Shown here one piece after another: positions 42,135 through 59,167 of a stretch of 64,000 nt of DNA. The translations under genes and the position numbers were made by a program. Within the stretch, counting starts at the first letter, position 1. Every line of letters begins with the position of its first letter. Below the pieces are notes generated by a model. The model was not told the DNA's origin. It made no database searches and was given only the letters and a program-made list of their open reading frames with translations. The DNA is from Paracoccaceae bacterium (lineage in GTDB: Bacteria > Pseudomonadota > Alphaproteobacteria > Rhodobacterales > Rhodobacteraceae): positions 2,778-66,777 of the forward strand of contig JANOCQ010000319.1 in NCBI GenBank assembly GCA_031412255.1, given 5' to 3'.

Positions 42135-43379
42135 TTACCCTTTAGGCAGGATCAGGATCGCGCGGAAGTCGTTGACGTTGGTCAACGTGGGGCCGGTCAC
42201 GACCTGTGATCCTGCGCGGGCGAAGTAGCTGTGCGCATCGTTGCGAGCCAGTGCCTCGGCAGCACCCGGGAATTTCAGCGTATCGGGACAAACCAGCGCG
42301 CCGGCAACCTCGGCCGCGCCGTCTACACCGTCGGTGTCACAGGCGATCGCGTGAATCTGGCTGTGGCCGTCCAGCGCGATGGCGAGGGCCAGGCAGAACT
42401 CGGCATTCGGCCCCCCTACCCCGTCGCCGGTGCGGGTCACGGTCAGCTCTCCGCCTGACAGAAGAAGGATCGGTCTGTCACCTGGCTTGATGCTGGCGGC
42501 AAGGCCTATCGCCATCGCGGCCTGTTCCCGAGCGACAGCGCGGGCCTCTCCCTCAAGCCTGTCGCCCAGAGTACGGACCTCTGCCACAGGAGCGGCCAGG
42601 TCGGCAGCGGCCGCGAGAGATTGGGCAGGAGCGGCGTAGATGATGTTTTCGGTCCGTGACAGACGAGGGTCGCCGGGGGGGACCACGCCCGACCGGGCAA
42701 GCGCTGCGCGGGCCGCTTCCGGAACCGGGATGTTCCAGCGGTCAAGGATTCCCCGGACTTCGTCGGCGGTGGTCACGTCGCCGACCGTGGGACCGGAGCC
42801 GATGAAGGCCGGATCGTCACCAGGCACATCCGAGATCATCAACGCCAGCATCCTTGCCGGATAGGCGGCGGCGGCAAGCTGGCCACCCTTCACGCGGCTG
42901 AGATGCTTTCGCACGGTATTCATGGCAAGGATCGGGGCGCCCGATGCCAGAAGTGCCGCATTGATCTGCTGCTTCTCCGCCAGCGTCATGCCGTCCGCCG
43001 GGGCGCAAAGGAGTGCCGATGCTCCACCGGAAATCAGTGCAAGGACAGTATCGTCCTTGGAAAGGCCCGCGACGAGGTCCAGCATCCGGGCAGTGGCATC
43101 GACTCCGGCCTGGTCGGGCACGGGATGGGCGGCCTCCACGATCTTGATCCCACGGCAGGGGCGGCCATAGCCGTATCGGGTGATGACAAGTCCGTCGCAC
43201 GGCCCCCATGCGACCTCGACAGCTTCGGCCATCCGGGCCGAGGCCTTTCCCGCGCCGATGACCAGCAGGCGACCCTTGGGCTTTTCGGGCAAGAAACGCG
43301 CGAGGGAGCGCATCGGGTCGGCGACCTCGACCGCACGGTCGAAGAGCTGGCGGAGGAACGTGGCAGGATCTGGAATCAT
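42135..43379 (-). CDS. Glycerate 2-kinase (MOFRL/TtuD family)
   Basis: IGAGKASA, LISGGASAL, NTVRKHLSRVKGG, SDVPGDD, SGGELTV, DTDGVDG, TGPTLTNVNDFR. Confidence 0.9.
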   Translation of the reverse strand: MIPDPATFLRQLFDRAVEVADPMRSLARFLPEKPKGRLLVIGAGKASARMAEAVEVAWGPCDGLVITRYGYGRPCRGIKIVEAAHPVPDQAGVDATARMLDLVAGLSKDDTVLALISGGASALLCAPADGMTLAEKQQINAALLASGAPILAMNTVRKHLSRVKGGQLAAAAYPARMLALMISDVPGDDPAFIGSGPTVGDVTTADEVRGILDRWNIPVPEAARAALARSGVVPPGDPRLSRTENIIYAAPAQSLAAAADLAAPVAEVRTLGDRLEGEARAVAREQAAMAIGLAASIKPGDRPILLLSGGELTVTRTGDGVGGPNAEFCLALAIALDGHSQIHAIACDTDGVDGAAEVAGALVCPDTLKFPGAAEALARNDAHSYFARAGSQVVTGPTLTNVNDFRAILILPKG

Positions 43380-44377
43380 CAGCCTTGGCTCGACGCGCGG
43401 AGGATCAATGTCACGGGTGTAACGGTTTCCGGCGGCGGGCGGTGGGCATTTTCCAACCAGTTCAGCACCGTTTCCGCCATCTGACGCCCGAAACCTGCGA
43501 TATCGCAGCGAACCGACGAGAGGGCGGGGAAAACCTGAGCGCAGTCTTCGATGTCATCGAAGCCGACGATTTTCAACGCGGTTCCGACAGGGCGGCCAAG
43601 TTCGGTGCAGCCGGTCAGAAGCCCAAGCGCGGTGAGGTCGTTGAAACATAGGACCGCATCGACAGAGGGCTGTTCCTGCAAGAGCCAGCGTGCCGCCTCG
43701 CGTCCGAAGGCGCGGCCGGGTCGGCCGGGAAGGTGCAAAGGTTCAAGCCCGCCGGCGGCCAGCGTGGCGAGGTAACCGGACATGCGCAGTTGCGTGACGG
43801 CCCGGCCCTCCAGCCCGCCGACAAAGGCAATCCGGGACGCGCCCTGGGCCAGAAGGTGTTCCGTGGCGAGGCGGCTGCCGGTCGAATAATCCGGCGCTGC
43901 GAAGGGAACGCGGGCGGTGTCGACGACCTGGCGCAGAACCTGCAATGCCGGGACATTCGCCCGGATGATTGCATCGAAGGCGGCTTCGTCCCCATAGGCG
44001 GGCGAGACGATCAGGGCCGAGACGCCATGTTCCAGCATCGCGCCGATGACCTGGGCCTGTAGGGTTGGGTTCTCATCCGTGTTGCCAAGCACCGTCGCAT
44101 AGCCGCGAGCCGAAAGGGCCATTTGCAGCGAAGTGGCGAATTCGGTGAAGAAGGGGTTTCGAAGGTCGTTGATGACGACGCCGATCAGCCCCGCATTGGC
44201 CGAACGCAGGTTTGCCGCTGCGCGGTTGTAGACGTAGCCGAGCTGCGCCATGGCGCGGCGGACATCCTCGCGCGTTTCCTGTTTCACCAGCGGGCTTTGC
44301 TGCAGGACCAGACTGACGGTGGACTTGGATACCCCCGCCAAGGTCGCCACGTCGATGATCGTCGGCCGTTTGTCCAT
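43379..44377 (-). CDS. LacI-family transcriptional regulator
   Basis: TIIDVATLAGVSKSTVSLVL, YVYNRAAANLR, CFND, VGFDD. Confidence 0.95.
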   Translation of the reverse strand: MDKRPTIIDVATLAGVSKSTVSLVLQQSPLVKQETREDVRRAMAQLGYVYNRAAANLRSANAGLIGVVINDLRNPFFTEFATSLQMALSARGYATVLGNTDENPTLQAQVIGAMLEHGVSALIVSPAYGDEAAFDAIIRANVPALQVLRQVVDTARVPFAAPDYSTGSRLATEHLLAQGASRIAFVGGLEGRAVTQLRMSGYLATLAAGGLEPLHLPGRPGRAFGREAARWLLQEQPSVDAVLCFNDLTALGLLTGCTELGRPVGTALKIVGFDDIEDCAQVFPALSSVRCDIAGFGRQMAETVLNWLENAHRPPPETVTPVTLILRASSQG

Positions 44378-44383
44378 GGCACC

Positions 44384-45547
44384 TTACGTCTGATCGATCC
44401 CGTAGAGGGAGAGAAGCGTCCGCATCCGCGCTTCTGCCAGATCGGGACGGGAAAGCAAGCCTGCCTGGTCGGCCAGGCGGAAGACCTGAGCGTAATGGGT
44501 TATGTCGCGCGAGGATTGGAAGCCTGCGGGCATGATGAAGTGGGACTGGTGGCCGTTCAGCCAGGAAAGGAACGCGATGCCGGCTTTGTAAAAGCGCGTG
44601 GGGGCGCGGAAGATTTCGCGGCTGAGGGGGACGGTGGGGGCGAGGAGGCGGTGGTAGGTTTGATGGTCGTTCAGGGCGAGGGCTTCGAGGGCCTGGGCGG
44701 CGGCGGGGGCGATGGCGGCGAAGATGCCGAGGAGAGCGTGGGAGAAGTGGGTGCCGTCGCCCTCGATCAGGGGGGCGTAGTTGAAGTCGTCGCCGGTGTA
44801 GAGGCGGACCCCTGCGGGGAGGCGGGCGCGGAAGGCTTCCTCGTGCGCCTGGTCGAGGAGCGAGATCTTGATGCCGTCGACCTTCTGCGGGTTCTCGGCG
44901 ATGAGGGAGAGAACGAAGTCGGAGGCGCGTGCGACGTCGGTGGAGCCCCAGTAGCCAGTGAGCATGGGGTCGAACATCGGGCCGAGCCAGTGCAGGATGA
45001 CCGGGTCTTTGGCTTGGTCGATCAAGCGGCGGTAGACGTGGTGGTAGGTGTCTTCGGTGGCGTTCAGCGCGGTGAAGGCGCGGGAGGCCATCAGGATGAG
45101 CTGGCCTCCGGCGGCCTCGATGGCCTCGGCTTGCAGGGTGTAGGCGGCGAGGATGGCGTCGGCGGTGGTGAGGTTCTGCGCGTGGTCGGTCCCGGCCCCG
45201 CAGGCGACACGGGGGCGCATCGGGTGGGCCTTGGCGGCGCTCATTGTGCGCTGGATCAGTTCCAGCGCCGTCGGCCAGTCGACGCCCATGCCGCGTTGGG
45301 CGGTGTCCATCGCCTCGGCGAGGTGGAGGCCCTGGTCCCAGAGCTGTTGGCGGAAAGCCAGGGTGGCGTCCCAGTCGACGGCGGGTCTGGTGTCCCAGGG
45401 GGACCGTTCCCGCAAGGGGTCGGAGACGACGTGGGCGGCGGCAAAGGCGGTTCTGGTGAGGGGTATGCGGGGAGCGCGGGGGACGAGGGGGGTGCCGGTG
45501 AGGCGGTAGGGTTCCAGGCGCGCGTCGGCGGTGGGGAGGGTCAGCAT
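44384..45547 (-). CDS. DUF993 / DHDPS-like class I aldolase-fold protein
   Basis: AFAAAHVV, AEAMDTAQRGMG, GIKISLLD, LYTGDDFNY, HALLGIF. Confidence 0.75.
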   Translation of the reverse strand: MLTLPTADARLEPYRLTGTPLVPRAPRIPLTRTAFAAAHVVSDPLRERSPWDTRPAVDWDATLAFRQQLWDQGLHLAEAMDTAQRGMGVDWPTALELIQRTMSAAKAHPMRPRVACGAGTDHAQNLTTADAILAAYTLQAEAIEAAGGQLILMASRAFTALNATEDTYHHVYRRLIDQAKDPVILHWLGPMFDPMLTGYWGSTDVARASDFVLSLIAENPQKVDGIKISLLDQAHEEAFRARLPAGVRLYTGDDFNYAPLIEGDGTHFSHALLGIFAAIAPAAAQALEALALNDHQTYHRLLAPTVPLSREIFRAPTRFYKAGIAFLSWLNGHQSHFIMPAGFQSSRDITHYAQVFRLADQAGLLSRPDLAEARMRTLLSLYGIDQT

Positions 45548-45643
45548 CGGGTTGCCTTCCGGGCGGGTGTTGAATGGAGCGCTGGCGCGCGAGGCTTTTG
45601 TCTCGCCTTTTGCGCGTGAAGAACGCGCAACGGCTCGGACGTT

Positions 45644-45693
45644 CGGGGCGCTTCGCCCTCCAAACCCCCAGAGGATATTTGGGGACATGAAAT
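45644..45693 (+). repeat. Dispersed repeat family C
   Basis: ggggcgcttcgccctccaaacccccagaggatatttggggacatgaaat, preceded by the hairpin ttgcgcgt-gaaga-acgcgcaa. Confidence 0.5.
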
Positions 45694-45695
45694 GG

Positions 45696-46001
45696 TCATG
45701 CGATCGGAAGGTCGAAGACGAGGATGCCGTCGATCCCGCCTTGGGCTGCGGCGACAAGGGCAGCGCCGGCGCGTTTGTGGTCAGGGTGGGCCTGGTAGGT
45801 TGCGAGGGCGTTCCAGTCGGCGAAGTCGATGGTGAAGCCGTGCATGTAGCCGCGTTCGATCTGTTCGGGGCTTTCCGAGCGGCCGGAGTGGATGGCGAGG
45901 ATGCCGGGGAGTTCGAGGCTGTGGAGGTCGGCGAAGATGGACTGGATGTGGGTCTCGGTGACCTCGGGGCGGGCTTTGAGGAGGACGATGTGGCGGATCA
46001 T
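45696..46001 (-). CDS. Dabb (stress-responsive A/B barrel) protein
   Basis: MIRHIVLLK, HGFTIDF, YQAHPDH. ATGA overlap with the GMC gene. Confidence 0.88.
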   Translation of the reverse strand: MIRHIVLLKARPEVTETHIQSIFADLHSLELPGILAIHSGRSESPEQIERGYMHGFTIDFADWNALATYQAHPDHKRAGAALVAAAQGGIDGILVFDLPIA

Positions 46002-47572
46002 TTCTGGGCGTCCTTGATGAGGTCGGCGGCTTTTTCGGCGATCATGATGGTGGCGGCGTTGGTGTTCGAGGAGACAACGGTGGGCATGATCGAGGCATCG
46101 ACGACGCGGAGGGCGTCGATCCCGTTGAAGCGCAGGTGGGGGTCGACGACGGCCTCCAGGTCCGCGCCCATGCGGCAGGTGCCTGCGGGGTGGTGGTCGG
46201 TCTTGGCGTTCTTGATGGCGTAGTCGAAGTAGTCCTGATCGGTCTTGACGTCCGGGCCCGGGAGGCGCTCGGCGAGGACGAAGGGTTTCAGGGCGGGTTG
46301 GCGCATGATTTCCTGCGCGAGTTTGAGGCCCTTGATCGACATTTCGCGGTCGTAGGGGTCTTCCCAGTAGTTCGGGTCGATCAGCGGGGCGGCTTTCGGG
46401 TCCGCGCTGGCGAGGCGGACGGTGCCTCGGCTGCGGGGCCTCAGGAAGGCGGAGTTCAGGGTGACGCCGCCTTGCGGCATGGCGGCGACCCCGGCCTCGA
46501 TCCCGGAGCCGAGACCGAGGTGGAACTGGATGTCGGGGCTGCGGGCGGAGGGGTCGGCGTACCAGAAGCCCCCCGTCTCGAAGAGGGAGGAGGCGACGGG
46601 ACCTTTGCGGGTCAGGAGGTATTGGAGGCCTGCGAGGGCGGACCAATGCGGCTTGGCGTAGCGGTCGTAGGTGTGCGGGCCGGTGCATTCGGCGATGACG
46701 AAAAGGTCGAGGTGGTCCTGCAGGTTCGCGCCGACCTGCGGGCGGTCGAGGATGACGGGGATGCAGAGGCGTTGGAGGTCGTCGGCGGGGCCGATGCCGG
46801 AGAGTTGCAGAAGGCGGGGGGAGCCGATGGCTCCTGACGACAGGATGACTTCGGCGCTGGCGCGGTGGGTGGTTTCCGTGGTCTGGACGCCGACCGCCCT
46901 GCCCTTTTTGACGACGATCCGCAGGACCTGCTGGCTGGTTTTCACAGTGAGGTTCGGGCGGTTCAGGGCGGGTTTCAGGAAGGCGGTGGAGGTGGAAGAC
47001 CTGCGATACCAGCGCTGGGTCAGCTGGTAGTAGCCGAGCCCGTCTTGCGACTCTCCGGTGAAGTCGCGGTTGCGGGGGATGCCGATTTCGGACCCGGCGG
47101 CGAAGAAGGCCTCGCAGATCGGCAGGGGGGCGCGGGGCTGGCTGACGCCGAGGGGGCCATCTTTGCCGTGGTAACGGTTGTCGAAGCTGTCGTTGTGTTC
47201 GGACTTGCGGAAGTAGGGCAGCACGTCCTCATACCCCCAGCCGGGGCAGCCCATCTGGCGCCAGTCGTCGTAGTCCTGGGCGTTGCCCCGGGTGTAAAGC
47301 TGGGCGTTGATCGACGAGCCGCCGCCGATCACCTTGGCCTGCGTGTAGCGGATCTGCATGCCCTTCATGTGGCGCTGGGGGACGGTCTGCCAGCCCCAGG
47401 ACCCGATGCCCTTGGTCATCTTCGCGAAGCCTGCGGGGAGGTGGTAGAACGGGTGGCGGTCGCGGCCCCCGGCCTCCAGCAGAAGGACCTTTGCGGCGGG
47501 GTTTTCCGTCAGGCGGGCGGCGAGGACGCAACCGGCAGAGCCGCCGCCGATTATGATGTAGTCGTAGGTCAT
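45998..47572 (-). CDS. GMC oxidoreductase (choline/sorbose dehydrogenase-like)
   Basis: IIGGGSAGCVLA, KVIGGGSSINAQ, VGANLQDH, HHPAGTCRMG, VVDASIMP..SSNTNA. Confidence 0.92.
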   Translation of the reverse strand: MTYDYIIIGGGSAGCVLAARLTENPAAKVLLLEAGGRDRHPFYHLPAGFAKMTKGIGSWGWQTVPQRHMKGMQIRYTQAKVIGGGSSINAQLYTRGNAQDYDDWRQMGCPGWGYEDVLPYFRKSEHNDSFDNRYHGKDGPLGVSQPRAPLPICEAFFAAGSEIGIPRNRDFTGESQDGLGYYQLTQRWYRRSSTSTAFLKPALNRPNLTVKTSQQVLRIVVKKGRAVGVQTTETTHRASAEVILSSGAIGSPRLLQLSGIGPADDLQRLCIPVILDRPQVGANLQDHLDLFVIAECTGPHTYDRYAKPHWSALAGLQYLLTRKGPVASSLFETGGFWYADPSARSPDIQFHLGLGSGIEAGVAAMPQGGVTLNSAFLRPRSRGTVRLASADPKAAPLIDPNYWEDPYDREMSIKGLKLAQEIMRQPALKPFVLAERLPGPDVKTDQDYFDYAIKNAKTDHHPAGTCRMGADLEAVVDPHLRFNGIDALRVVDASIMPTVVSSNTNAATIMIAEKAADLIKDAQK

Positions 47573-47597
47573 TTCAGAGCCTCGGTGCGGCCGGGGA

Positions 47598-47643
47598 CCG
47601 GAGTTTTCGAAAACTCCGGGCAAAAGTACTCGAAAATTTTTGC
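47598..47643. repeat. Family A stacked palindromes, copy 2
   Basis: Perfect ccggagttttcgaaaactccgg plus degenerate gcaaaagtactcgaaaatttttgc. Confidence 0.85.
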
Positions 47644-47668
47644 GGTGCGCGGGGGGAAGAGGTCATTG

Positions 47669-48427
47669 CTACAGCCTTTCGATCGACAGACCGCCGTCGA
47701 CGGGGATCACCGCGCCGGTGGCGAAGGCCATCTGGCCGGTGACGAGGGGGATCACGGCCTGGCCGATGTCGGAGGGCTGGCCCCAGCGACCGGCGGGCAC
47801 AAGGCCACCGGCGATGCGGGCGTCGTATTTGTCTTTGACGCCTGCGGTCATGCCGGTCTCGATGATGCCAGGGCGCAGCTCGAAGACGCCGATGTTGTGC
47901 GGGGCAAGGCGGAGCGCGAGGGTCTGAGCGGCCATCGCGGCGGCGGCTTTTGAGATGCAATAGTCGGCGCGTTCGGGGCTGGCCATCTGGGCCGAGACGG
48001 AGGTGACGAAGGTGAGGGAGCGGTAGTGCTCGGCTGGGGTGGCGAGCATCCGTTGCGCGACTTGTTGAGCCAAAAAGAAGGCCCCGCGCAGGTTGATGCC
48101 GATGATCCAGTCGAAGTTTTCGGGCGTGATGTCGAGCATGTCGCCCCGGACCTTCGCGGCGACACCGGCGTTCTGGATCAGGGCGTCGAGGGGGCCTTGC
48201 TGGGCTTCGATAGCGTCGATGAGCGCGGGGATGGCGGCCACGTTCGAGAGGTCGTGACGGTAGTAGCGGGCGTCGGGACCGAGGGTTTTGAGGGCCGTCT
48301 GGACGGAGGCGTCTTCGGGCGCGGAGCGGGAGGCGATGGCGAGGCGGAAGCCTTGGGCGGCCAAGGCCTGAGCGATGCCGAGGCCGATGCCTTGCTGGCC
48401 GCCGGTGATGAGCGCGAGGGGTTTCAT
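47669..48427 (-). CDS. Short-chain dehydrogenase/reductase
   Basis: TGGQQGIG, NAGV, YCISK, PGIIETGM. Confidence 0.92.
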   Translation of the reverse strand: MKPLALITGGQQGIGLGIAQALAAQGFRLAIASRSAPEDASVQTALKTLGPDARYYRHDLSNVAAIPALIDAIEAQQGPLDALIQNAGVAAKVRGDMLDITPENFDWIIGINLRGAFFLAQQVAQRMLATPAEHYRSLTFVTSVSAQMASPERADYCISKAAAAMAAQTLALRLAPHNIGVFELRPGIIETGMTAGVKDKYDARIAGGLVPAGRWGQPSDIGQAVIPLVTGQMAFATGAVIPVDGGLSIERL

Positions 48428-49911
48428 GGCAGGGCTTTCGCGATGTGGTCGCCGGCGCGGAGAGCGAGGGCTGCGATGGTGAGCGAGGGGTTCACGGCGG
48501 CGGAGGTGGGCAGGACCGAGGCGTCGCAGATGTATAGGTTGTCGAGGTCGTAGGCCTTGAGGTTCGGGTCCACGACCGAGGTCTGCGGGTCCGCGCCCAT
48601 GCGGTTGGTGCCGCATTGGTGGGAGGGTTTGGATTTGGGGAAACCGCGGGCCAGGGTGATGGGCCAGCCTGCTTTCCGCATCGCCTGTTTCAGGCGCTGG
48701 ACGAGGAGGTCGTGGGCTTTCGTGTTCGTCTTCTTCCAGTCGAGCACGACCTCGCCGTTGCGCCAGAACACGCGGGAGTTGGGGTCGGGCAGGTCCTCGG
48801 ACATCGCCATGATGTGGATGGAGTGGTCGGCTAGGTGATGGGAGAGCCAGAGCGGCAGACCGGATTCGCCCGCGAGGATCGGACCGGTGATGCGGCCGAG
48901 CATCTGGATGTTGCCGAGGGGTTCGCCGCGCGGGCCGCCGGTCAGGTAGAAGTCATTGATCTGGATGGTCTTTTCGTAGGTCGTCCGGTTCCGGTGGAAG
49001 GGGTTGTAAGCGACCAGGCCGGTGAGGTTGTGGTTCATGAAGTTGCGGCCGACCTGGTCGGAGCGGTTGGCGAGGCCGGTCGGATGGTCGTCGTTGGCAC
49101 TGGCGAGGAGGAGGGCGGAGGAGAGGATAGCGCCTGCGGCGAGGACGACGGTGGGGGCGGTGAGGGTTTCGCGGGTGCCGTTGCAGTCGACCTCGACCCC
49201 GGTGATGCGGCGGGCGTCGGAGAGGAGGCGGGTGACTTTGGTGTTGGTCTGGAGGGTGACGTTGGGGTGCTTCAGCGCCTCGGCCAGGGCGCAGGATTCG
49301 GCGTCGGATTTGGCTCCGGTGGTGCAGGGGAAGGCGTCCCAGCCGGTCTTTGCGCGTTTCAGCCAGGCGTTGATGTCGACGCCCAGAGGTAGCGCGGAGA
49401 CGTGGAGGCCCTGGGCCTGGAACGCGGCGCGGAGGCGTTGGATGTCAGGCTCGTCGGGGACGGGCGGGAAGGGATAGGGGGCGGAGTGCGGCGGCTCGGT
49501 CGGGTCGTTCGCGACGTCGCCCCGGACGCGGTAGAGTGTTTCGGCGCGCGAGTAGAAGGGTTCGAGGTCAGCGTAGGTGATTGGCCAGCCGGGGGTGGTG
49601 CCTTCGATATGGGCAAGGGGGGCGAAATCCTCGGCCCGGTAGCGCAGGAGGACGGCGCCGTAGAACTTGGTGTTGCCGCCGACATAGGCGTAGTTGCCGG
49701 GGTGCAGGGGCGCGCCGGAGATGTCGCGCCAGGTCTCGTTCGGCTTGAAGTGGCCGCGCTGGAAGATGGCGGCGGGGTCGCGCGCCTCGGGCGAGTCCTT
49801 CAGGTGCTCGCCGCGTTCGAGGATCAGGATGCGGCGGCCGGTGGGCGCTAGGGCTGCGGCGAGGGTGGCGCCTCCCATGCCCGAACCGATGATGATGATG
49901 TCAGGCTGCAT
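48424..49911 (-). CDS. GMC-family flavoprotein (gluconate 2-dehydrogenase large-subunit-like)
   Basis: IIGSGMGG, VGGNTKFYGA, VGRNFMNH, HQCGTNRMG, DASVLPTSAAVNPSLTI. Confidence 0.88.
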   Translation of the reverse strand: MQPDIIIIGSGMGGATLAAALAPTGRRILILERGEHLKDSPEARDPAAIFQRGHFKPNETWRDISGAPLHPGNYAYVGGNTKFYGAVLLRYRAEDFAPLAHIEGTTPGWPITYADLEPFYSRAETLYRVRGDVANDPTEPPHSAPYPFPPVPDEPDIQRLRAAFQAQGLHVSALPLGVDINAWLKRAKTGWDAFPCTTGAKSDAESCALAEALKHPNVTLQTNTKVTRLLSDARRITGVEVDCNGTRETLTAPTVVLAAGAILSSALLLASANDDHPTGLANRSDQVGRNFMNHNLTGLVAYNPFHRNRTTYEKTIQINDFYLTGGPRGEPLGNIQMLGRITGPILAGESGLPLWLSHHLADHSIHIMAMSEDLPDPNSRVFWRNGEVVLDWKKTNTKAHDLLVQRLKQAMRKAGWPITLARGFPKSKPSHQCGTNRMGADPQTSVVDPNLKAYDLDNLYICDASVLPTSAAVNPSLTIAALALRAGDHIAKALP

Positions 49912-49912
49912 T

Positions 49913-51025: not shown

Positions 51026-51057
51026 GTCAAGCTCCTGGTCGGACGGTGGGGGCAGCG

Positions 51058-51125
51058 CCGAGTTTTCGAAAACTCCGGACCGGACTTTTTGAAAAGTCCG
51101 GTCAAATTCCTTCGAAGGAATTTGA
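51058..51125. repeat. Family A stacked palindromes, copy 3
   Basis: gagttttcgaaaactc, accggactttttgaaaagtccggt, tcaaattccttcgaaggaatttga. Confidence 0.85.
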
Positions 51126-51147
51126 GGTGAGCGGTGCGGGCGGGTCG

Positions 51148-52026
51148 TCATCCCTTCACGCTTCCCGCCATCAGGCCGCGGACGAAATAGCGTCCGGCTA
51201 CGATGTAGACGAACAGGGTGGGCAGCGCGGCTAGGATCGCGCCGGCGAAGTGGACGTTGTATTCCTTCACGCCCGTCGAGGATTGGACGAGGTTGTTGAG
51301 CGCGACGGTCATCGGCTGGCTGGTGCCGCCGAAGCTGACGCCGAAGAGGAAGTCGTTCCAGATGTTGGTGAATTGCCAGATCACGCTGACCACGGCGATG
51401 GGGCCAGAGACGGGCAGAAGGATGCGCCAGAAGATGCGGAAGAACCCCGCCCCGTCGATCATCGCGGCGCGGACAAGCTCGGTCGGGAACGACGCGTAGT
51501 AGTTGCGGAAGTAAAGCGTGGTGAAGCCGATCCCGTAGACGACATGGACGAGGATTAGGCCGGGGACAGTGCCAGCGAGGCCAAGCTTGCCAAGGACCAC
51601 GGCCATCGGGATCAGGACGATCTGGAACGGGATGAAGCAGGAAAAGAGCATTAGCCCGAAGACCCAGGTATCGCCCCGGAAGCGCCACTTGGTCAGGACG
51701 TAGCCGTTGAGGGCTCCGATGATTGTGGAGATGGCGACGGCGGGGACGACCATCAGGATGGAGTTGATGAAATAGGGTTTCAGGCCGGTCGGCTCGACGC
51801 CGATCTGCGCGGTGGACCAGGCCTGTCGCCAGGGCTCCAGCGTCCAGACCGACGGCAGCGCCATCATGTTGCCGCCGGTGATTTCGGCCAAGGGTTTGAG
51901 GGAGTTCACGCCCATCACGTAGAGCGGCAGGAGGTAGAAAAGCGCGAAGAGGAGGAGGGTGAGGTAGATCAGCGCGCGGGTGACGCGGGTGGTGGAGACG
52001 GCAGTGTCCTGGGCGGCGACGCTCAT
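51148..52026 (-). CDS. Carbohydrate ABC permease (MalG-type)
   Basis: EAA-like ELVRAAMIDGAG, FTNIWNDFLF. Confidence 0.93.
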   Translation of the reverse strand: MSVAAQDTAVSTTRVTRALIYLTLLLFALFYLLPLYVMGVNSLKPLAEITGGNMMALPSVWTLEPWRQAWSTAQIGVEPTGLKPYFINSILMVVPAVAISTIIGALNGYVLTKWRFRGDTWVFGLMLFSCFIPFQIVLIPMAVVLGKLGLAGTVPGLILVHVVYGIGFTTLYFRNYYASFPTELVRAAMIDGAGFFRIFWRILLPVSGPIAVVSVIWQFTNIWNDFLFGVSFGGTSQPMTVALNNLVQSSTGVKEYNVHFAGAILAALPTLFVYIVAGRYFVRGLMAGSVKG

Positions 52027-52916
52027 GCCTTCTTCTCCTTCAGCTCGGCGTAAAGGTAGGGGACCATGATCGCGGCGATGGTCATCAGCATGATCACGGC
52101 AGAGGAGGCGCCGATGCCCATCTGGTTCCTCGTGAAGGTGTAGGAATACATGAAGGTCGCGGGCATCTCGGTCGCCCTGCCAGGGCCGCCGCCGGTCAGC
52201 GCGATGACAAGGTCGTAGGACTTGATCGCGAGGTGGGAGAGGATGACGAAGGCCGACAGGAATGCGGGGCGTAGGAGGGGGATGACGATGCGGCGGTAAA
52301 GCTGCCAGTTCGAGGCACCGTCGATCTGGGCGGCCTTCAGGATCTCGTTGTCGATGCCGCGGAGCCCGGCGAGAAACATCGCCATCACGAAGCCCGAGGT
52401 CTGCCAGACGGCGGCGATGACGATGGTGTAGAGCGCCATCTCGCCGTCCTTGATCCAGGTGAAGGAGAAGCTCTCCCATCCCCACTGGTGCATGATCCGC
52501 TCCAGCCCGATGCCGGGGTCGAGGAACCATTTCCAGGCGGTGCCGGTGACGATGAAGCTGAGGGCCATCGGGTAGAGGTAGATGGGCCTGAGGACGCCCT
52601 CGCCCCGGATCTTCTGGTCGAGGAAGATCGCCAGCATCAGGCCGATGGCGGTGCAGATGGTGATGTAAAGGGTGGCGAAGATGGCGATGTTGACTGTGGC
52701 GGTGTGCCAGGCCGGGAGGGCGAAGAGCTTTTCATAGTTCTCGAAGCCGACCCAGGTGAACTTGGGCAGCATCTTCGAGCCGGTGAAGGAGAGGACCACG
52801 GTGAAGAGGATGAAGCCGTAGACGAAGAGGAGCGTCACAGCGAAGGAGGGGGCGAGGACGAGCTTTGGCAGCCAGTCCTGCAGCGTCGTGCGGAAATCGG
52901 CCTGGGTCGTCGCCAT
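52023..52916 (-). CDS. Carbohydrate ABC permease (MalF-type)
   Basis: LYPMALSFIVTG, LKAAQIDGAS, SYDLVIALTGGGP. Confidence 0.93.
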   Translation of the reverse strand: MATTQADFRTTLQDWLPKLVLAPSFAVTLLFVYGFILFTVVLSFTGSKMLPKFTWVGFENYEKLFALPAWHTATVNIAIFATLYITICTAIGLMLAIFLDQKIRGEGVLRPIYLYPMALSFIVTGTAWKWFLDPGIGLERIMHQWGWESFSFTWIKDGEMALYTIVIAAVWQTSGFVMAMFLAGLRGIDNEILKAAQIDGASNWQLYRRIVIPLLRPAFLSAFVILSHLAIKSYDLVIALTGGGPGRATEMPATFMYSYTFTRNQMGIGASSAVIMLMTIAAIMVPYLYAELKEKKA

Positions 52917-52939
52917 CGGTCCCTCCCGTGGGTTTAAGC

Positions 52940-52986
52940 GCAAAAGTTTTCGAAAACTTTTGCCAAATTCCTTCGAAGGAATTTGG
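52940..52986. repeat. Family A stacked palindromes, copy 4
   Basis: Perfect gcaaaagttttcgaaaacttttgc and ccaaattccttcgaaggaatttgg. Confidence 0.85.
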
Positions 52987-52989
52987 TCT

Positions 52990-53013
52990 GGGGGCGACCC
53001 GAGGGCCGCCCCC
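52990..53013 (-). other. GC-rich hairpin just after the binding-protein gene (possible mRNA stabiliser or attenuator)
   Basis: gggggcg-N10-cgccccc stem, no clear U tract. Confidence 0.45.
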
Positions 53014-53022
53014 GTCGCGAGG

Positions 53023-54273
53023 TTACTGCGCGGCGGCGACGGCTTCGGCCAGGGCTGCAGCGGCAGCGGCCCCGTCGGCATATTCGCCGTTGAAGGCCGC
53101 GGTGATCACGTCATAGGTGGCGTTCTTCACCGAGGCCGGGGCAGCATGGCCGTGCGCCATCGAACCGAAGAGCGTGCCGTTGGTCGAAGCCTCGGCCAGG
53201 TCGGCCATTCCCTTCTTGCCGCAATCGTCAAAGGCCTCGTTCGAGACGTCGGTCCGCGCGGGGACCGAGCCCTTCACCACGTTGAACGCCGACTGGAACA
53301 CCGGGTCCATGATCGCCTTCGCCATGGCGACCTGGGCTTCCTGCTTGGCCGGGTCGGTCTGGTTGAACATGGCGAACTGGTCGGAGTTGAACGTCACCGA
53401 CCCTTGCGTTCCGGGGAAGCGGATGCAGACGAAATCGGTACCGGGGACCTTGCCGGCCTTCAGGAACTCACCCTTGGCCCAGTCGCCCATCATCTGCATG
53501 CCCGCCTCGCCGTTGATCACCATCGCGGAAGCCAGGTTCCAGTCGCGGCCCGAGAAGTTGTCGTCGACATATGACCGAAGCTTGATCAAATGGTCGAAGG
53601 CCGTGGCCATCTCGGGCCCGCCAAGGGCGGCTGGGTCGAGGTCGATGAAAGCCTGCTTGTAAAGGTCACCGCCCATGCCGAGGACGATCCCGTCGAAGAC
53701 GGTGGCTTCCTGCCAGGGCTGGCCGCCATGGGCCAAGGGGGTGATCCCGGCCTCTTTCATCTTGTCGAGGACAGCCACCAGCTCGTCCCAGGTGGTCGGC
53801 GCGCCAAGGCCGGTCGCGTCGAGCGCGGCCTTGTTGATCCAGACCCAGTTGGTCGAATGGACGTTGACCGGGGCCGCGACCCACTTACCGTCAGAGGTCG
53901 AGAAGCCCTGCAGCGCGGTGGGGACGACCTTGTCCCAGCCTTCGGCGGTGGCGGTGGCGGTCAGGTCGGCAAGCGCGCCCTCACCGGCCCAGTCGAGGAT
54001 GTCGAAGCCCAGCATCTGCACGGCGGTCGGCGGGTCGCCGGCGGTGACGCGGGCGCGCAGCGCGGTCATCGCGGCTTCGCCACCGCCGCCGGCGACGGGC
54101 ATGTCGACCCAGCCGGTGCCGGCAGCGCCGAGATTGTCCTTCAGGACGTTCAGCGCGGCGGCTTCACCACCGCTGGTCCACCAGTGCAGGACTTCGACGT
54201 CCTCGGCGAAAGTGATCGAGGTTGTCATCACAAGGGCCGCCGCGGCGGTCATCGTCTTTCCGAAAAGGCGCAT
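53023..54273 (-). CDS. Sugar ABC substrate-binding protein (glucose/mannose GtsA-like)
   Basis: Signal peptide, [43 protein letters not shown]. Confidence 0.9.
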
Positions 54274-54307
54274 GGTTTCCTCCCGTTTTGCGCTTCGTTT
54301 GCCCGGC

Positions 54308-55831
54308 TTACCGGGGTCTTACCCAAGGCGCCCGGGTGCGGCCGATCCGCATGACGAGCGACTTGATTTCCATGAATTCATCTAGGCCCTGGCGGCCGAT
54401 CTCGCGCCCCAGGCCGGATTGCTTGACGCCGCCGAAGGTCACCTCCGGAAAGCCGTCCATCCAGGTGTTGGTCCAGACCGTGCCTGCCTGCACGCCGCGT
54501 GCAAAGGCCAGGCAGGTGTGGATGTTCTCGCTCCACACCCCGGCGGAAAGGCCGTAGTCGGCGTCGTTCACCAGATGCAGGGCCTCTTCGAGGGTGCGGA
54601 AGGTGAGGACGGTCAGGACCGGGCCAAACACCTCTTCCCGGGCGATTGCCATGTCGGGGGTGACGTCCGTCACGATGGTGGGCTGGTAGAATTGTTGGCC
54701 GAGGCCGGGGATATCCAGCGCTTGGCCGCCAAGCGCGACGGTGGCCCCGGCCTTGCGCGCGGCAGAGACGTAGGCGTCGATCTTGGCACCGTGCTCTCGG
54801 CTGACGATGGCACCGACCTGCGTCTGGGGGTCCAGCGGATCGCCGAAGGCCACCTGCTTCGAGAGCTTTACCACTCGCGCGGTGAAGGCTTGGGCAATGT
54901 CCTCATGGACGATGATCCGGGAGCCGGAGTTGCAGCACTGGCCGACGTTGAAATAAACGCCGAACGTCACCGCATCGGCGGCTGCCTCAAGATCGGCGTC
55001 CGGGAAGATCACCTGCGGGTTCTTGCCGCCAAGTTCGAGGGCAACTTTCTTCAGCGTGGTCGATGCGGCCGCCGCGATGCCGCGCCCGACGGCGGTGGAG
55101 CCGGTGAAGGTCACCATGTCCACGCGCGGGTCGCTGGCGAGGGTCGCGCCGACCGGTTGGCCGTAGCCTAGGACGATGTTCACCACGCCCCGCGGAAGGC
55201 CCGCTTCGACAAGAAGCTCGCCAAGGATGACAGTGGTGGAGGGGGTCAGTTCAGAAGGTTTGACGATGCAGGTGCAGCCGGCGGCCAGCGCGAAGGGGAG
55301 TTTCTGGCTAAGGATCCAGAACGGGAAGTTCCAGGGCGTGATGATGCTGACGACGCCGATGGGTTCCTTCAGCACCACGGCAAGCATGTCCTCGCCCAGC
55401 GAGTTGTGGCTGTCGCCATGCAGCGTGCGGGCGAGTGAAGCGGCATAGCGCCAGAGGTCGGCGGCCCCCGCGACCTCGCCCCGCGACTGGGTGATGGGCT
55501 TGCCGGATTCCAGCGTCTCGATCAGGGCCATCCGGTCAACATGGGCTTCGATCAGGTCGGCGACCTTGAGGAGCAGAGTGGCGCGGGCCTTGCCGGGCAA
55601 CTTGCTCCAGCGGCCATCGTCAAAGGCGGCGCGGGCGGCGGTGATGGCGGCCGCGGTCTCGGGCCTGCCACCCCGCGCGGATCGGCTGACGACCGCCCCG
55701 TGCGAGGGGGAAAGGCGTTCGGATGTCGCCCCGTCGGCATTGTCCTGCCAGTGGCCGTCGATCAGGTGGCGCGCCAGAAATACCGGCGGTAAAGTCGTCT
55801 GGATTGCAGGGATCACTGTCAGGTCAAGCAT
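54308..55831 (-). CDS. NAD(P)-dependent aldehyde dehydrogenase
   Basis: [39 protein letters not shown]. Confidence 0.95.
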
Positions 55832-55833
55832 CT

Positions 55834-56601
55834 TCAGCTTCCCGGAAATTCTGGTTTGCGCTTCTGGCGGAACGCGGCGACGCCCTCTTCCCGATCATCG
55901 GTGGCGGCGATGGCGGCGGACCCCAGCGCCTCGATCAGGGCGGCGCTGTCCTCGCCCTGGCCGGCGTGGATCATCGCCTTGGTGATTTCCGTGGCGCGGG
56001 GAGAAAGGGTGGCGGCCTTCTCGGCGATGGCGTGGGCGGCGGCGCGGGGGTCGTCGGAAACTTCGGCCACGAAGCCGCAGGAGAAAAGGCGATTAGCCCC
56101 GATGCGGCGACCGAAGAGGGCCATTTCCTTGAGGACGCCTTCCGGGATCAGCCGGGCGAGGCGTTGCGAGCCGGACCAGCCGGGGACGATGCCGACCCCG
56201 GCCTCGGGCAGCGCGATGGTGGCTTGCGGGGTGATCAGGCGGATGTCGCAGGCAGCGGCCAGTTCCAGGCCGCCGCCGAAAGCATGGCCGTTCAGTGCGG
56301 CGATGGTGGGTTTCGAAAGGCGCGCGAGGCGGTCAAAGATGCGATGTCCGCCGCGGACCCAATTGCGTGCGAAGTCGGCGGGGGAAAGGCCGCCCCAGGC
56401 GTTGATGTCGGCGCCAGAGCAGAAGGCTTTCTCGCCTTCGCCCGTGACGATCACCGCGCGAATTTCCGATTGGACTTCGATAAGTTCCAGATGACTGGCC
56501 AACTGGGCCAGCATCTCCACGGTGAAGCAGTTGAGCTTGGCCGGATTGTCGAGCGTGAGCGTTGCCACCGGCCCGGTGATGTGCAGGCGGACGCCGGTCA
56601 T
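55834..56601 (-). CDS. Enoyl-CoA hydratase/isomerase (crotonase) with both catalytic Glu
   Basis: AFCSGADI, AFGGGLELA, LPEAGVG. ATGA overlap with the CoA-transferase. Confidence 0.92.
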   Translation of the reverse strand: MTGVRLHITGPVATLTLDNPAKLNCFTVEMLAQLASHLELIEVQSEIRAVIVTGEGEKAFCSGADINAWGGLSPADFARNWVRGGHRIFDRLARLSKPTIAALNGHAFGGGLELAAACDIRLITPQATIALPEAGVGIVPGWSGSQRLARLIPEGVLKEMALFGRRIGANRLFSCGFVAEVSDDPRAAAHAIAEKAATLSPRATEITKAMIHAGQGEDSAALIEALGSAAIAATDDREEGVAAFRQKRKPEFPGS

Positions 56602-58169
56602 GGCTGCCACCCCATCGGGCCTTCAGTCAGAAGTGAGAGCGGCATGGTCGTGGCGTTCTCGGCCACGGTCACCCGGCCCTGGCTCGCGGCGATGATGTCG
56701 CGGGCCGGGTCGATCCCCGGCATGATCTCGGTCGCGACAAGGCCCTTGGCCGTCAGCCGGATTGCGCAACGCTCTGTGATGTAGAGGACCTCTTGCCCCT
56801 GCTGGCGCGCCCGGTTGCCCGAGAAGGTGACGTGTTCGACGCGGTCGACCATCTTGCAGAACTTGCCGGGTGTGGCGACGCTCAGCCCCGAGGGGGTAAG
56901 CGCGACCCCTGCCCCGGCCTCGAACCAGCCGGAGAAGACGATCTTGCGGGCATGGGCGGTGATATCGACAAAGCCGCCGCACCCTGCTGTCAGGTAGGGC
57001 TTCTTGCCCAGTTTCGAGACGTTGACGTTGCCTTCGACGTCGATCTCCATGAACGAGAGGAGGGACATGTCGAAGCCCCCGCCCTGGAAGTAGATGAACT
57101 GCTGCGGCGACGGCATGTAGCCCCAGGCATTCGACGCGCAGCCGAAGGCGAAGCCGGTCAGCGGCATGCCGCCCACGGCGCCCTGTTCGATGGCCCAGGT
57201 GACGGCCTCGGGGTGGCCTTCCTCCAAGAGGATCCGGGGGACCATCGCGCTGATGCCAAAGCCGAGATTGGCGGTCATGCCGCCGCGAAGCTCCAGCGCG
57301 GCGCGGCGCGCGATGACCTTTTCGACCCCGTGCTCGGCAAAGCTGAACGATGACCAGGGCCGCATGATCTGACCGGAGATCGCCGGATCGTAGGGCGTTT
57401 CGGTGGTCTGGCGCTGGTCGGGGTCGAGAACGATGAGGTCGACAAGGTGGCCAGGCACGCGCACGTCGTGCGGTCGAAGCGACCCCTTGGTCGTCACGCG
57501 TGAGACCTGGGCAATGACGAGGCCCCGGTTGTTGCGGGTGGCAATCGCCTGCTCCAAGCCACCCAGATAGGCGCCTTCGTGTTCGTAGGTCAGATTGCCA
57601 TTTTCGTCGGCCGTCGTCGCCCGCAGGATGCAGACGTCGGGCTGGATGTTCGGGAAATGCAGCCAGGTCTCGCCGCCGAACTCCACCCGGTGGACGATGG
57701 GGTCCGCCGCCCCGCGGGCGTTCATCGAGCAGCCCTCGCGGATCGGGTCGGCGAAGGTCTCCATGCCGACCTTGGTCAAGACACCCGGACGGCGCGCTGC
57801 TGCCTCTCGGTGCATGTCGAACATGATGCCGGACGGCACGTTGTAGGCGGCGACGCGATCCTCGACGATCATCTTCCAGATCTCGGGCATCGGCAGGTTG
57901 GAAGAGCCCGAAGGATAGGAGCCGGCCAGAACGCGGGCGAGAAGGCCTTCCTGCGCGATCCAGTCCATCCCCTTGACGCCATACATGTCGCCCGCCGCGA
58001 TGGGGTGCAGGGTGGTGATGGCCTTCGGATGCCCTTCCGCGCGGAACCGCTCACCCAATGCCTTCAGAACCAGGTCCGGGCAGCCAAGGGCGGAGGAAGA
58101 GGATACGGTGATGACCGCCTCATCGGCGATACGCACGACGGCCTTGGATACTGCGACGAGCTTGGTCAC
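56598..58169 (-). CDS. Acyl-CoA:acetate/3-ketoacid CoA-transferase (YdiF/Pct fused type)
   Basis: ATTADENGNLTYE, ANLGFGIS, IEQG (catalytic Glu), GCGGFVDIT, YITERC. Confidence 0.9.
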   Translation of the reverse strand: MTKLVAVSKAVVRIADEAVITVSSSSALGCPDLVLKALGERFRAEGHPKAITTLHPIAAGDMYGVKGMDWIAQEGLLARVLAGSYPSGSSNLPMPEIWKMIVEDRVAAYNVPSGIMFDMHREAAARRPGVLTKVGMETFADPIREGCSMNARGAADPIVHRVEFGGETWLHFPNIQPDVCILRATTADENGNLTYEHEGAYLGGLEQAIATRNNRGLVIAQVSRVTTKGSLRPHDVRVPGHLVDLIVLDPDQRQTTETPYDPAISGQIMRPWSSFSFAEHGVEKVIARRAALELRGGMTANLGFGISAMVPRILLEEGHPEAVTWAIEQGAVGGMPLTGFAFGCASNAWGYMPSPQQFIYFQGGGFDMSLLSFMEIDVEGNVNVSKLGKKPYLTAGCGGFVDITAHARKIVFSGWFEAGAGVALTPSGLSVATPGKFCKMVDRVEHVTFSGNRARQQGQEVLYITERCAIRLTAKGLVATEIMPGIDPARDIIAASQGRVTVAENATTMPLSLLTEGPMGWQP

Positions 58170-59167
58170 GCGGCCCTCCCGTAATCCACAACCTGCCGGC
58201 TTGCGGTTCTGGCGGCCTCGCGTACCGCCAGAGCCACGGCCAGCGACGCGACGCCGTCGCGACCTGTTGCTGCGGGTTGACCGGTCCCCGCGATGGCGCC
58301 GAGAAAGTCTGTCACGCTTTGGACGTAAAGGTCGTGCGGGGAATAGGGGACGTCTTCCCGGCCCCGCGCGCTGACCATGCTGATGGACCCGACCGGCAGC
58401 TGAGTCATCACCCCGTTCGCGAAGATGGAACCCTCGGTGCCGTGCACCTCCAACCCCGACCCGGCGAAGGGATGCGTAAAGCTTTCATGGCTTTGCACCA
58501 TCGCGCCCGAAGGCATGGTCCAGACGGACATTGCGGAATCCTCGACCCCCTGCCCCATGCCGGTAGCGCTCATCTGCGCCACCACGGCGACGGGGTCCTC
58601 GCCCAGCAGGAACCGTGCCACGTCGGCGTCGTGAACAGTGATGTCCGGGATAACCCCACCGCCCGCAGATGGATCATTGATCCGCCAGCCTTGCAGATGC
58701 GGGGGCAGATGAACCGCGTGAAACAGGCGCAAGGACAGGACGCGACCGATGCGGCCCGCCCGGATCAGGTCGCGCACCGCCCGATGCGATCCAGAACAGC
58801 GCAGATGATGATTTGTGGCAAAAACCACGCCTGCTGCCTCGGCCGCGCGGACCATTTCTGCTGCCTCGGCCACGGTCATCGCAAGAGGCTTCTCGCACAG
58901 AACGTGCTTGCCGGCGGCAATCGCAGCCATCGCCTGCGCATAGTGCTTTTCATTGGTTGATGAAATATAGACCGCCCTGATAGACGCATCCGACAGCACC
59001 GCATCCAGGTCAGTCCCCGAAACAGCGATGCCATGTTTGTCAGCGTAGTCCTGAGCGCGCTGAAGCGAGGTGCTGACCACAGCCGCCGTTTCGCCATTCG
59101 TGGCACGAATGGCACCCATCATGTGCTGTTCGGCAATGGTGCTTGCCCCGATCAACCCCCAGCGCAT
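58166..59167 (-). CDS. afr: Gfo/Idh/MocA oxidoreductase, 1,5-anhydro-D-fructose reductase-like
   Basis: WGLIGASTIA, STNE.H, HVLCEKPLAMT, TNHHLR, FHAV.LPPHLQGWR, GGGVI.DITVHDAD, EVHGTEGS and VMTQ.PVG all match the recalled Sinorhizobium/Ensifer Afr sequence. Confidence 0.75.
   Translation of the reverse strand: MRWGLIGASTIAEQHMMGAIRATNGETAAVVSTSLQRAQDYADKHGIAVSGTDLDAVLSDASIRAVYISSTNEKHYAQAMAAIAAGKHVLCEKPLAMTVAEAAEMVRAAEAAGVVFATNHHLRCSGSHRAVRDLIRAGRIGRVLSLRLFHAVHLPPHLQGWRINDPSAGGGVIPDITVHDADVARFLLGEDPVAVVAQMSATGMGQGVEDSAMSVWTMPSGAMVQSHESFTHPFAGSGLEVHGTEGSIFANGVMTQLPVGSISMVSARGREDVPYSPHDLYVQSVTDFLGAIAGTGQPAATGRDGVASLAVALAVREAARTASRQVVDYGRAA

Follow-up and report, generated by a model that had tools for sequence, protein, structure and literature searches.

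A conserved afr operon from a Paracoccaceae bacterium and a candidate CoA-dependent pathway for anhydro-sugars

In a 64-kb stretch of Paracoccaceae DNA (contig JANOCQ010000319.1; hereafter the window, counts in the window referring to its whole length), 15 co-directional genes occupy positions 42135-59167 of the minus strand, from the ATG at 59167 of afr, which encodes a predicted 1,5-anhydro-D-fructose reductase (AFR), to the stop codon at 42135 of a glycerate kinase gene. A sequence-only reading had taken these genes for one tightly coupled operon that serves the coenzyme A (CoA)-dependent catabolism of anhydro-sugars. All genes were indeed recovered within these limits and all domains named in that reading were assigned by Pfam, in gene order Gfo/Idh/MocA, CoA_trans, ECH_1, Aldedh, SBP_bac_1, two BPD_transp_1, ABC_tran with MalK OB/TOBE, GMC, adh_short, GMC, Dabb, DUF993, LacI and DUF4147 with MOFRL. 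The tight coupling holds for 9 of the 14 junctions, which overlap or measure at most 6 nt (stop and start codons overlap at six junctions), and not for four gaps of 96-148 nt, situated between the genes for the sugar-binding protein and permease 1 (sbp/perm1), permease 2 and the ATPase (perm2/atp), the short-chain dehydrogenase/reductase (SDR) and the second GMC flavoprotein (sdr/gmc2), and the Dabb and DUF993 proteins (dabb/duf993); the one other junction has a gap of 34 nt. Minus-strand terminator-like hairpins were searched for in the operon gaps and none was found. Among the operon proteins the curated NCBIfam cut-off was reached by the SDR only, so that standard annotation gives the remaining genes generic family names.

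The first gene, afr (58166..59167, on the minus strand as all operon genes), encodes a protein of 333 residues with the features of an NADPH-dependent AFR and shares 4 nt with the gene that follows. With residues 2-328 aligned, the protein matches both solved AFR structures of the Protein Data Bank (PDB), 2GLX (E 4.6e-110) and 4KOA (E 4.9e-107), whereas the next PDB relative is found at E 1e-26 only, which marks it, as far as sequence comparison can tell, as a true orthologue of the characterised reductase, beyond mere membership of the same family. K93 (CEKPLA), D175 and H179 (DITVHD) and the GASTIA motif are identical to those of 2GLX in the alignment; the AFR structure paper reportedly assigns catalysis to the lysine, aspartate and histidine and binding of the dinucleotide to GASTIA. 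The protein scores far below the NCBIfam model of levoglucosan dehydrogenase; degradation of levoglucosan proceeds via 3-keto chemistry. Genomic context agrees as well: the gene with the 1,5-anhydro-D-fructose reductase annotation in Sinorhizobium meliloti has matching neighbours in matching order. AFR (EC 1.1.1.292) catalyses the NADPH-dependent reduction of 1,5-anhydro-D-fructose to 1,5-anhydro-D-mannitol, an activity that is known for the orthologue.

Downstream of afr lie three genes whose products are more familiar from acyl-CoA and aldehyde metabolism. The CoA-transferase (56598..58169, 523 residues) is a family I enzyme of the YdiF type with fused alpha and beta parts in a single chain (PF01144), and aligns over its full length (residues 6-519 of 523) with E. 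coli YdiF (2AHU, E 3.8e-88). The glutamate that had been picked out in its EQG motif is E328 (AIEQGAVGG), which falls on the YdiF glutamate (TVETGPIGG) that is reported in structural work on YdiF to form the enzyme-CoA thioester. The crotonase-fold protein (55834..56610, 258 residues; PF00378, E 1e-44), predicted to be an enoyl-CoA hydratase or 3-hydroxyacyl-CoA dehydratase, has a 3-hydroxypropionyl-CoA dehydratase as its best PDB match (5ZAI, E 4e-50), and both catalytic glutamates claimed for it are conserved, E116 (GGGLELA) and E136 (LPE) being aligned with the two glutamates of 5ZAI and also of 5Z7R. The third gene (54308..55831) encodes a putative NAD(P)-dependent aldehyde dehydrogenase (ALDH) of 507 residues (PF00171, E 7e-164), for which no NCBIfam equivalog was found at cut-off.

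The next four genes encode an ATP-binding cassette (ABC) transporter, consisting of a periplasmic sugar-binding protein of the CUT1 type with a signal peptide (SBP, 53023..54273; PF01547), two permeases (52023..52916 and 51148..52026; both PF00528) and an ATPase of the MalK/UgpC type (49913..51025; PF00005, OB_MalK, TOBE_2). The SBP matches PDB entries 4R2B (E 1e-177), 5DVF (E 2e-117) and 8HQQ (E 5e-112). 4R2B is reportedly an Ochrobactrum protein solved with glucose; 5DVF and 8HQQ place the operon protein, by its sequence, with the glucose/galactose-binding proteins of Pseudomonas and SAR11. The 8HQQ structure is that of SAR11_0769 in complex with D-glucose (PMC11485210). For smc04396, the corresponding gene of S. 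meliloti, induction by dextrin has been reported (PMC4960864), which is compatible with glucan-derived or heat-formed anhydro-sugars, though not specific for them. In several relatives (nine loci) the stretch that separates perm2 from the ATPase gene, a gap of 122 nt in the window, accommodates another SBP gene of about 52% identity to the first; this second SBP suggests a wider ligand range in those strains.

Behind the transporter lie two GMC flavoprotein genes that enclose the SDR gene. GMC1 (48424..49911, 495 residues) is predicted to be cytoplasmic, has neither signal peptide nor partner subunits, and finds its relatives among the catalytic subunits of FAD-dependent glucose and fructose dehydrogenases (6A2U, E 1e-39; 7W2J, E 8e-28), which oxidise ring positions of sugars. 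The SDR (47669..48427, 252 residues; PF13561/PF00106) scores 338 bits with NCBIfam PRK12745, above the cut-off. GMC2 (45998..47572, 524 residues) is choline-dehydrogenase-like, its best PDB matches being a chloramphenicol-oxidising oxidoreductase (8B7S), a choline dehydrogenase (9LQ0), an alcohol oxidase (8RPG) and a hydroxymethylfurfural (HMF) oxidase, and resembles primary-alcohol oxidases; some of these GMC2 relatives oxidise their alcohol through to the acid. It is overlapped by 4 nt by the gene of a dimeric alpha/beta barrel (Dabb) protein of 101 residues (45696..46001; PF07876).

The DUF993 gene (44384..45547, 387 residues; PF06187, E 2e-169) encodes a protein for which the closest structure is the uncharacterised S. 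meliloti protein 4DNH (E 2e-128). Its AlphaFold (AF2) model, with a mean predicted local distance difference test score (pLDDT) of 80.6, superimposes on 4DNH with a template modelling (TM) score of 0.90 and on many dihydrodipicolinate synthase (DHDPS) structures with TM scores of 0.73-0.83 (E 1e-9 to 1e-7), which points to a distant TIM barrel of the DHDPS/NAL fold. In a profile-profile alignment (hhalign) with the DapA protein of the host, 90.6% probability was obtained and K227 (DGIKIS) was placed on the Schiff-base lysine of strand 6 (IIGVKDA); of 33 representatives that share 34-58% identity, 91% retain K227. The region of the N-terminal GTTGE motif remained unaligned with DapA, Pfam returned PF06187 only and no PF00701 match, and a histidine replaces the DHDPS tyrosine; for these reasons we file the protein, on its sequence and model, as a remote, lysine-bearing relative of the class I pyruvate aldolases and not as a member of the DHDPS/NAL family, the superfamily to which the archaeal 2-keto-3-deoxy-D-gluconate (KDG) aldolases belong. 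A word search with the protein gave near-identical sequences only.

The operon is closed by the genes of a LacI-family repressor (43379..44377; PF00356 and PF13377) and a putative glycerate 2-kinase of the MOFRL type (42135..43379, 414 residues), in which Pfam found both the DUF4147 (PF13660) and the MOFRL (PF05161) domain. The archaeal glycerate 2-kinase models of NCBIfam recognise the kinase with E 5e-60, at 204 and 162 bits, where their cut-offs are 550 and 670 bits. Its gene adjoins lacI in 27 of 45 loci; the region downstream of lacI was inspected in loci that lack the kinase and nothing relevant was found there.

Upstream of afr, the window contains two copies of an operator-like palindrome of 12 bp, TGGAWCGWTCCA, namely a distal copy TGGAACGATCCA at 59206..59217 and a proximal copy TGGATCGTTCCA at 59184..59195, 17 nt before the region of the afr start codon; these are its only two matches in the window. 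In 24 of 28 related loci the palindrome is found no more than 260 nt ahead of the gene that opens the operon (afr, or the CoA-transferase gene where afr is missing), with two copies in 14 of the 28, and it occurs just 42 times in 1.34 Mb of such loci. In loci of the S. meliloti type it is found in the gap between the divergent DUF993 and lacI genes, and lacI itself is present in every locus that spans the region from the CoA-transferase gene to lacI. Conserved in this way, TGGAWCGWTCCA marks a single LacI-type regulon to which both afr and DUF993 belong, the LacI protein being its presumed ligand.

Conservation was surveyed in a sample of 80 loci anchored on GMC1, with 10 kb taken at each side. 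Loci from Paracoccaceae, from Rhizobium and from Devosia repeatedly show the order CoA-transferase, crotonase, ALDH, ABC transporter, GMC1, SDR, GMC2, Dabb, DUF993, LacI and, in part of the loci, glycerate kinase. Overall the gene order was found in dozens of genomes of several families, namely Paracoccaceae, Stappiaceae and Rhizobiaceae, to the last of which the S. meliloti afr locus belongs, and also in Devosia; in Peteryoungia desertarenae the order of all 15 genes is identical. A gene-content table of the 37 loci that span CoA-transferase to LacI has the CoA-transferase, the crotonase and both GMC flavoproteins in all 37, the ABC system in 35, ALDH in 34, SDR and DUF993 in 31 each and Dabb in 29. 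afr precedes the CoA-transferase gene in 21 of the 28 GMC1-anchored loci with enough upstream sequence. From the other side, an Afr homologue was found in 32 of 151 Rhizobiaceae genomes, and in all 30 loci fetched the CoA-transferase gene follows directly after afr. The sequence-only reading was also right in expecting comparable genes around a Sinorhizobium afr gene: the S. meliloti locus reads LacI-afr-CoA-transferase-crotonase-ALDH-ABC-GMC-SDR-GMC-glycerate kinase with DUF993 divergent upstream, an order with which the entries SMc04390-04392 in a published protein table agree (PMC12542648). The operon of the window is the Paracoccaceae (Tabrizicola-type) copy of this conserved afr operon, known from the S. 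meliloti locus around SMc04400.

Several variants of this order are informative. A reduced operon in genome G147 (locus L116) consists of afr, CoA-transferase, crotonase, ABC transporter, one GMC and LacI genes only, and by sequence still has the enzyme types that the upper pathway proposed below would require. In some Rhodobacterales a divergent transporter of the major facilitator superfamily (MFS) stands in place of the ABC system and ALDH. On the conjugative plasmid pNK6a of Bradyrhizobium diazoefficiens (L189, 15001-17634), homologues of Afr (52%) and GMC1 (55%) occur beside an MFS permease amid transposases, which suggests that Afr and GMC1 act on one small molecule; the pair may be a mobile two-enzyme module for oxidation and reduction at C2. 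GMC1 homologues of 74-82% identity are also found with no other operon gene within 10 kb (L022, L026, L028, L044 and others), that of L022 looking monocistronic between genes of the opposite strand. Roseibium porphyridii carries its afr cluster on a 49-kb plasmid (NZ_CP120864.1; L188) and was obtained from Porphyridium cruentum, a red microalga. As red algae are a classical source of 1,5-anhydrofructose, this origin is an ecological hint, be it a single anecdote.

Around a CoA-transferase that is 58% identical to the one in the window, paralogous clusters repeat much of the combination (crotonase, GMC2-like protein, ALDH, SDR, DUF993, Dabb and glycerate kinase) with extra genes for acyl-CoA dehydrogenase, ETF, aldo-keto reductases, a xylose-isomerase-like TIM barrel or an FAH hydrolase, and the transporters of these and related CoA-transferase clusters are of the ABC, MFS or GPH type. 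What recurs in all versions is a GMC of the primary-alcohol type with a CoA-transferase, usually a crotonase, and usually a sugar transporter nearby. Such a core would fit the oxidation of a primary alcohol to a carboxylate, its conversion to a CoA thioester and the loss of a beta hydroxyl through the crotonase. One such second, sugar-like CoA-dependent cluster was seen on the megaplasmid of S. meliloti ml59 (L186; CP140947.1, 726322-753881) and at L113 and L115; it holds genes for a sugar ABC transporter, an alcohol dehydrogenase (ADH), ALDH, GMC, aldo-keto reductases, the CoA-transferase (58%), crotonase, glycerate kinase, acyl-CoA dehydrogenase, SDR, DUF993, the xylose-isomerase-like TIM barrel, ETF alpha and beta and a LysR regulator, and points to a family of related pathways. 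A CoA-transferase with 59% identity to that of the window is encoded on an 834-kb plasmid record labelled Escherichia coli (CP054241.1), which may be mislabelled or a contaminant.

From these data we consider it very probable that the genes make up a real, conserved and co-regulated catabolic operon that is functionally tied to Afr. That its physiological substrates are anhydro-sugars we hold somewhat likelier than the contrary, 1,5-anhydro-D-fructose, 1,5-anhydroglucitol and 1,5-anhydromannitol being most likely. As the best explanation of the whole we tentatively propose, well aware that it may prove wrong, a LacI-repressed operon for the catabolism of a glucose-shaped sugar without a free anomeric centre by way of a CoA-dependent scheme. 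In this scheme the sugar would be taken up through the ABC system, the family of which, as read from sequence, is of the glucose type. GMC1, as a candidate 1,5-anhydroglucitol 2-dehydrogenase, would oxidise anhydroglucitol at C2 to anhydrofructose and so feed Afr, which would reduce it to anhydromannitol, the reaction known for its orthologue. GMC2, with or without ALDH, could then oxidise the sole primary alcohol, at C6, to give 2,6-anhydro-D-mannonate, from which the YdiF-type CoA-transferase would form a thioester. The thioester would render the alpha proton acidic, and the crotonase would take this proton and the beta hydroxyl, leaving a cyclic 2-alkoxy-enoyl species, and the CoA would be handed to the next substrate molecule, as in the dehydration of carnitine by CaiB and CaiD. 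Hydration of the vinyl ether and ring opening would yield KDG. Since 2,6-anhydro-mannonate and KDG are isomers, the net reaction would be a CoA-catalysed isomerisation that feeds the lower branch of the Entner-Doudoroff pathway without oxygenases or radicals. KDG would be cleaved to pyruvate and glyceraldehyde, with the DUF993 lysine enzyme as candidate aldolase, and ALDH would give glycerate, from which glycerate 2-kinase would give 2-phosphoglycerate, as in the non-phosphorylative lower branch.

Stereochemical considerations of our own lend this scheme coherence. Because D-mannitol is C2-symmetric, oxidation of 1,5-anhydro-D-mannitol at C6 should yield 2,6-anhydro-D-mannonate, and loss of the 3-hydroxyl followed by hydration of the vinyl ether should lead from there to KDG, while the gluco epimer should give the uncommon L-threo isomer. 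That the manno epimer leads to KDG, a central intermediate, would explain the manno specificity of Afr, and would also explain how a host with the usual KDG metabolism could make do with the reduced operon. CoA chemistry would moreover be needed only for a pyranoid without a hemiacetal, and 1,5-anhydro-D-mannitol, the product of Afr as the one characterised enzyme of the operon, is just such a compound. The pathway that the sequence-only reading proposed is thus chemically coherent and fits the comparative data, and as a new pathway it is plausible, if somewhat less than evenly so; the CoA-dependent ring opening to KDG, exactly as written above, is possible but doubtful.

Several observations weigh against this scheme. 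Except for the Afr reaction, we infer all of its steps. Among solved structures, the CoA-transferase and the crotonase come closest to YdiF and 3-hydroxypropionyl-CoA dehydratase, two enzymes that use acyl groups of three to four carbon atoms. A dedicated vinyl-ether hydratase was not recognisable in the operon. The GH88 enzymes are vinyl-ether hydratases, and in a search for them (PF07470) in 401 Pseudomonadota genomes none of 30 loci lay beside CoA-transferase, crotonase or GMC genes. The SDR and the Dabb protein are given no step in the scheme, and the DUF993 protein carries H186 at the position of the catalytic tyrosine of DHDPS (Tyr133 of the E. coli enzyme). Operons without afr (7 of 28), without ALDH (3 of 37), without SDR (6 of 37) and without DUF993 (6 of 37) exist as well. 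Finally, in the account that PMC12441222 gives of Kuhn et al. 2006, the sole biochemistry published, S. morelense converts anhydromannitol to mannose by oxygenation at C-1 through an unidentified P450-like enzyme. The interpretation of the sequence-only reading is supported in part, the genes forming a conserved, co-regulated unit with an Afr orthologue, and differs from this published route, which goes from anhydromannitol to mannose without CoA esters.

The alternative that survives best, though we consider it unlikely, is that the operon serves another glucose-like substrate, such as an osone (a 2-keto-aldose), a deoxy or otherwise modified hexose, a carbasugar, an iminosugar or a small glycoside, and that reduction of anhydrofructose is a side activity of Afr; GMC1 and Afr would then simply change the configuration at C2 through an oxidation followed by a reduction, and that other skeleton would undergo the acid and CoA chemistry. 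AFR reportedly also reduces osones to manno-aldoses, as Kuhn is said to have found in 2006. The SBP family binds glucose as well as galactose, dextrin, the inducer of the S. meliloti SBP gene, is a heterogeneous product, and the clusters around the 58%-identical CoA-transferase, with their extra enzymes and varied transporters, suggest pathways for several substrates. Against these points, a CoA module would make little sense for ordinary hexoses or the uronic acids derived from them, for which routes without CoA exist, and only a substrate free of a hemiacetal needs such chemistry; the manno product of Afr would, by our reasoning, lead exactly to KDG. Growth of Rhizobiaceae on anhydrofructose has also been reported, according to the summary of Kuhn 2006 in PMC12441222.

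We judge it less likely still that the operon does serve anhydrofructose but with ring opening as published, so that Afr is followed by oxygenation at C-1 to mannose by an enzyme encoded elsewhere, and that the CoA-transferase, crotonase and ALDH handle not a sugar acid but a small downstream acid of three to four carbon atoms (for instance 3-hydroxypropionate, lactate, acetoacetate or glyceryl-CoA). The published biochemistry just cited from PMC12441222 speaks for the oxygenase, and the short-chain substrates of YdiF and of the 3-hydroxypropionyl-CoA dehydratase (E 4e-50) speak for the small acid. A survey of cytochrome P450 genes, meant to exclude the oxygenase route, was uninformative, as 11 of 12 operon-bearing genomes carry such genes elsewhere; the exception, G147 with its reduced operon, has no P450 match, which argues against the oxygenase. 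Glycerate CoA esters reportedly occur in the oxidative deoxyribose pathway attributed to Price et al. 2019, which likewise ends in glycerate kinase. The reduced operon of G147, on the other hand, keeps afr, CoA-transferase, crotonase, transporter and one GMC and contains nothing to make an acid of three to four carbon atoms, and the translational coupling of the afr and CoA-transferase genes, adjacent in 30 of 30 loci, argues for neighbouring steps of one pathway. That two unrelated modules, one for sugar transport and one of the fatty-acid type, came together by chance without a common pathway, for which the four gaps of 96-148 nt and the variable presence of some genes might be quoted, is highly improbable in view of the order kept across several families, the stop/start overlaps at six junctions, the single conserved operator before the first gene and the recurrence of the combination in paralogous clusters.

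In the neighbourhood of the operon, a gene for a MarR-family regulator (59265-59738, minus strand) immediately precedes afr in the same orientation and is divergent from a gene for a class II aldolase of the HpcH/HpaI type (59815-60621, plus strand). The pair is probably a separate small unit, adjoining the operon in its closest relatives only (L003 and L007). The HpcH/HpaI gene was considered as the source of a KDG aldolase and dropped, since it stands beside the operon in these closest relatives only. The GC skew of the plus strand amounts to 0.19-0.28 over positions 44001-52000, the distal half of the operon, vs about 0.05-0.1 in most of the window.

To our knowledge, the breakdown of 1,5-anhydrofructose after Afr under aerobic conditions has been an open question since 2006. 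According to a 2025 review, the enzyme that follows Afr in aerobes still awaits identification and an aerobic route for 1,5-anhydroglucitol has yet to be described; the review adds that an oxygen-tolerant enzyme degrading 1,5-anhydroglucitol would be needed for any probiotic approach to the neutropenia of glycogen storage disease (GSD) Ib and G6PC3 deficiency (PMC12441222). Our literature search found no paper that mentions DUF993 and none that links anhydro-sugars with CoA enzymes, and the SMc0439x genes were unassigned in it, SMc locus tags being mentioned only twice and in passing. Here the operon offers a specific and falsifiable chemical scheme together with a defined, conserved and genetically tractable set of candidate genes that is present in the laboratory strain S. 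meliloti 1021, and it would provide the first functional contexts for DUF993 and the Dabb protein. If the scheme is true, the pathway itself would be new and thioester-enabled ether opening would join the known strategies of sugar catabolism.

The scheme borrows features from several known systems. With CaiB and CaiD of E. coli it shares a CoA-transferase and a crotonase-fold dehydratase that would recycle CoA, without ATP for activation; CaiB is a family III transferase, whereas that of the window belongs to family I (YdiF type) and stands in a sugar operon, so that the likeness is one of working and not of membership. The net transformation proposed here, oxidation of an anhydro-sugar to an anhydro-aldonate and its isomerisation to a 2-keto-3-deoxy-aldonate, is also that of the 3,6-anhydro-L-galactose (AHG) pathway of agar degraders, in which AHG dehydrogenase and 3,6-anhydrogalactonate cycloisomerase lead to 2-keto-3-deoxy-galactonate. 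There, however, an enolase-superfamily cycloisomerase acts on the free acid and directly opens an ether in beta position, while the present scheme would have an ether at the alpha carbon opened through a thioester and a crotonase, and an enolase-superfamily gene is absent from the operon of the window. The anaerobic glycyl radical routes for 1,5-anhydroglucitol and 1,5-anhydromannitol (YbiW, PflD; PMC12441222) resemble it in substrates and in breakage of the ring ether, but they depend on uptake by a phosphotransferase system (PTS), on 6-phosphates and on oxygen-sensitive radicals, and their genes are absent from the operon, which instead encodes air-compatible flavoproteins and CoA enzymes. 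The lower part recalls the non-phosphorylative Entner-Doudoroff branch by bringing together a lysine enzyme of the DHDPS fold, an ALDH and a MOFRL kinase, with the difference that, to judge from their sequences, DUF993 is a remote relative (no PF00701 match, histidine for tyrosine) and the kinase stays below the archaeal equivalog cut-offs.

Closest by far is the afr locus of S. meliloti and S. morelense (PDB 2GLX and 4KOA; the SMc04390-SMc04401 region), an orthologous operon that shares gene content, gene order, DUF993 and the operator motif with the operon in the window. The S. meliloti operon begins with lacI and has DUF993 in divergent orientation, whereas in the window these two genes are placed towards the 3' end and there is a Dabb gene in addition; in the version of either organism Afr is the sole characterised enzyme. 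As a kind of locus it is a repressor-controlled sugar catabolic operon with a putative dehydration module of CoA-transferase and crotonase.

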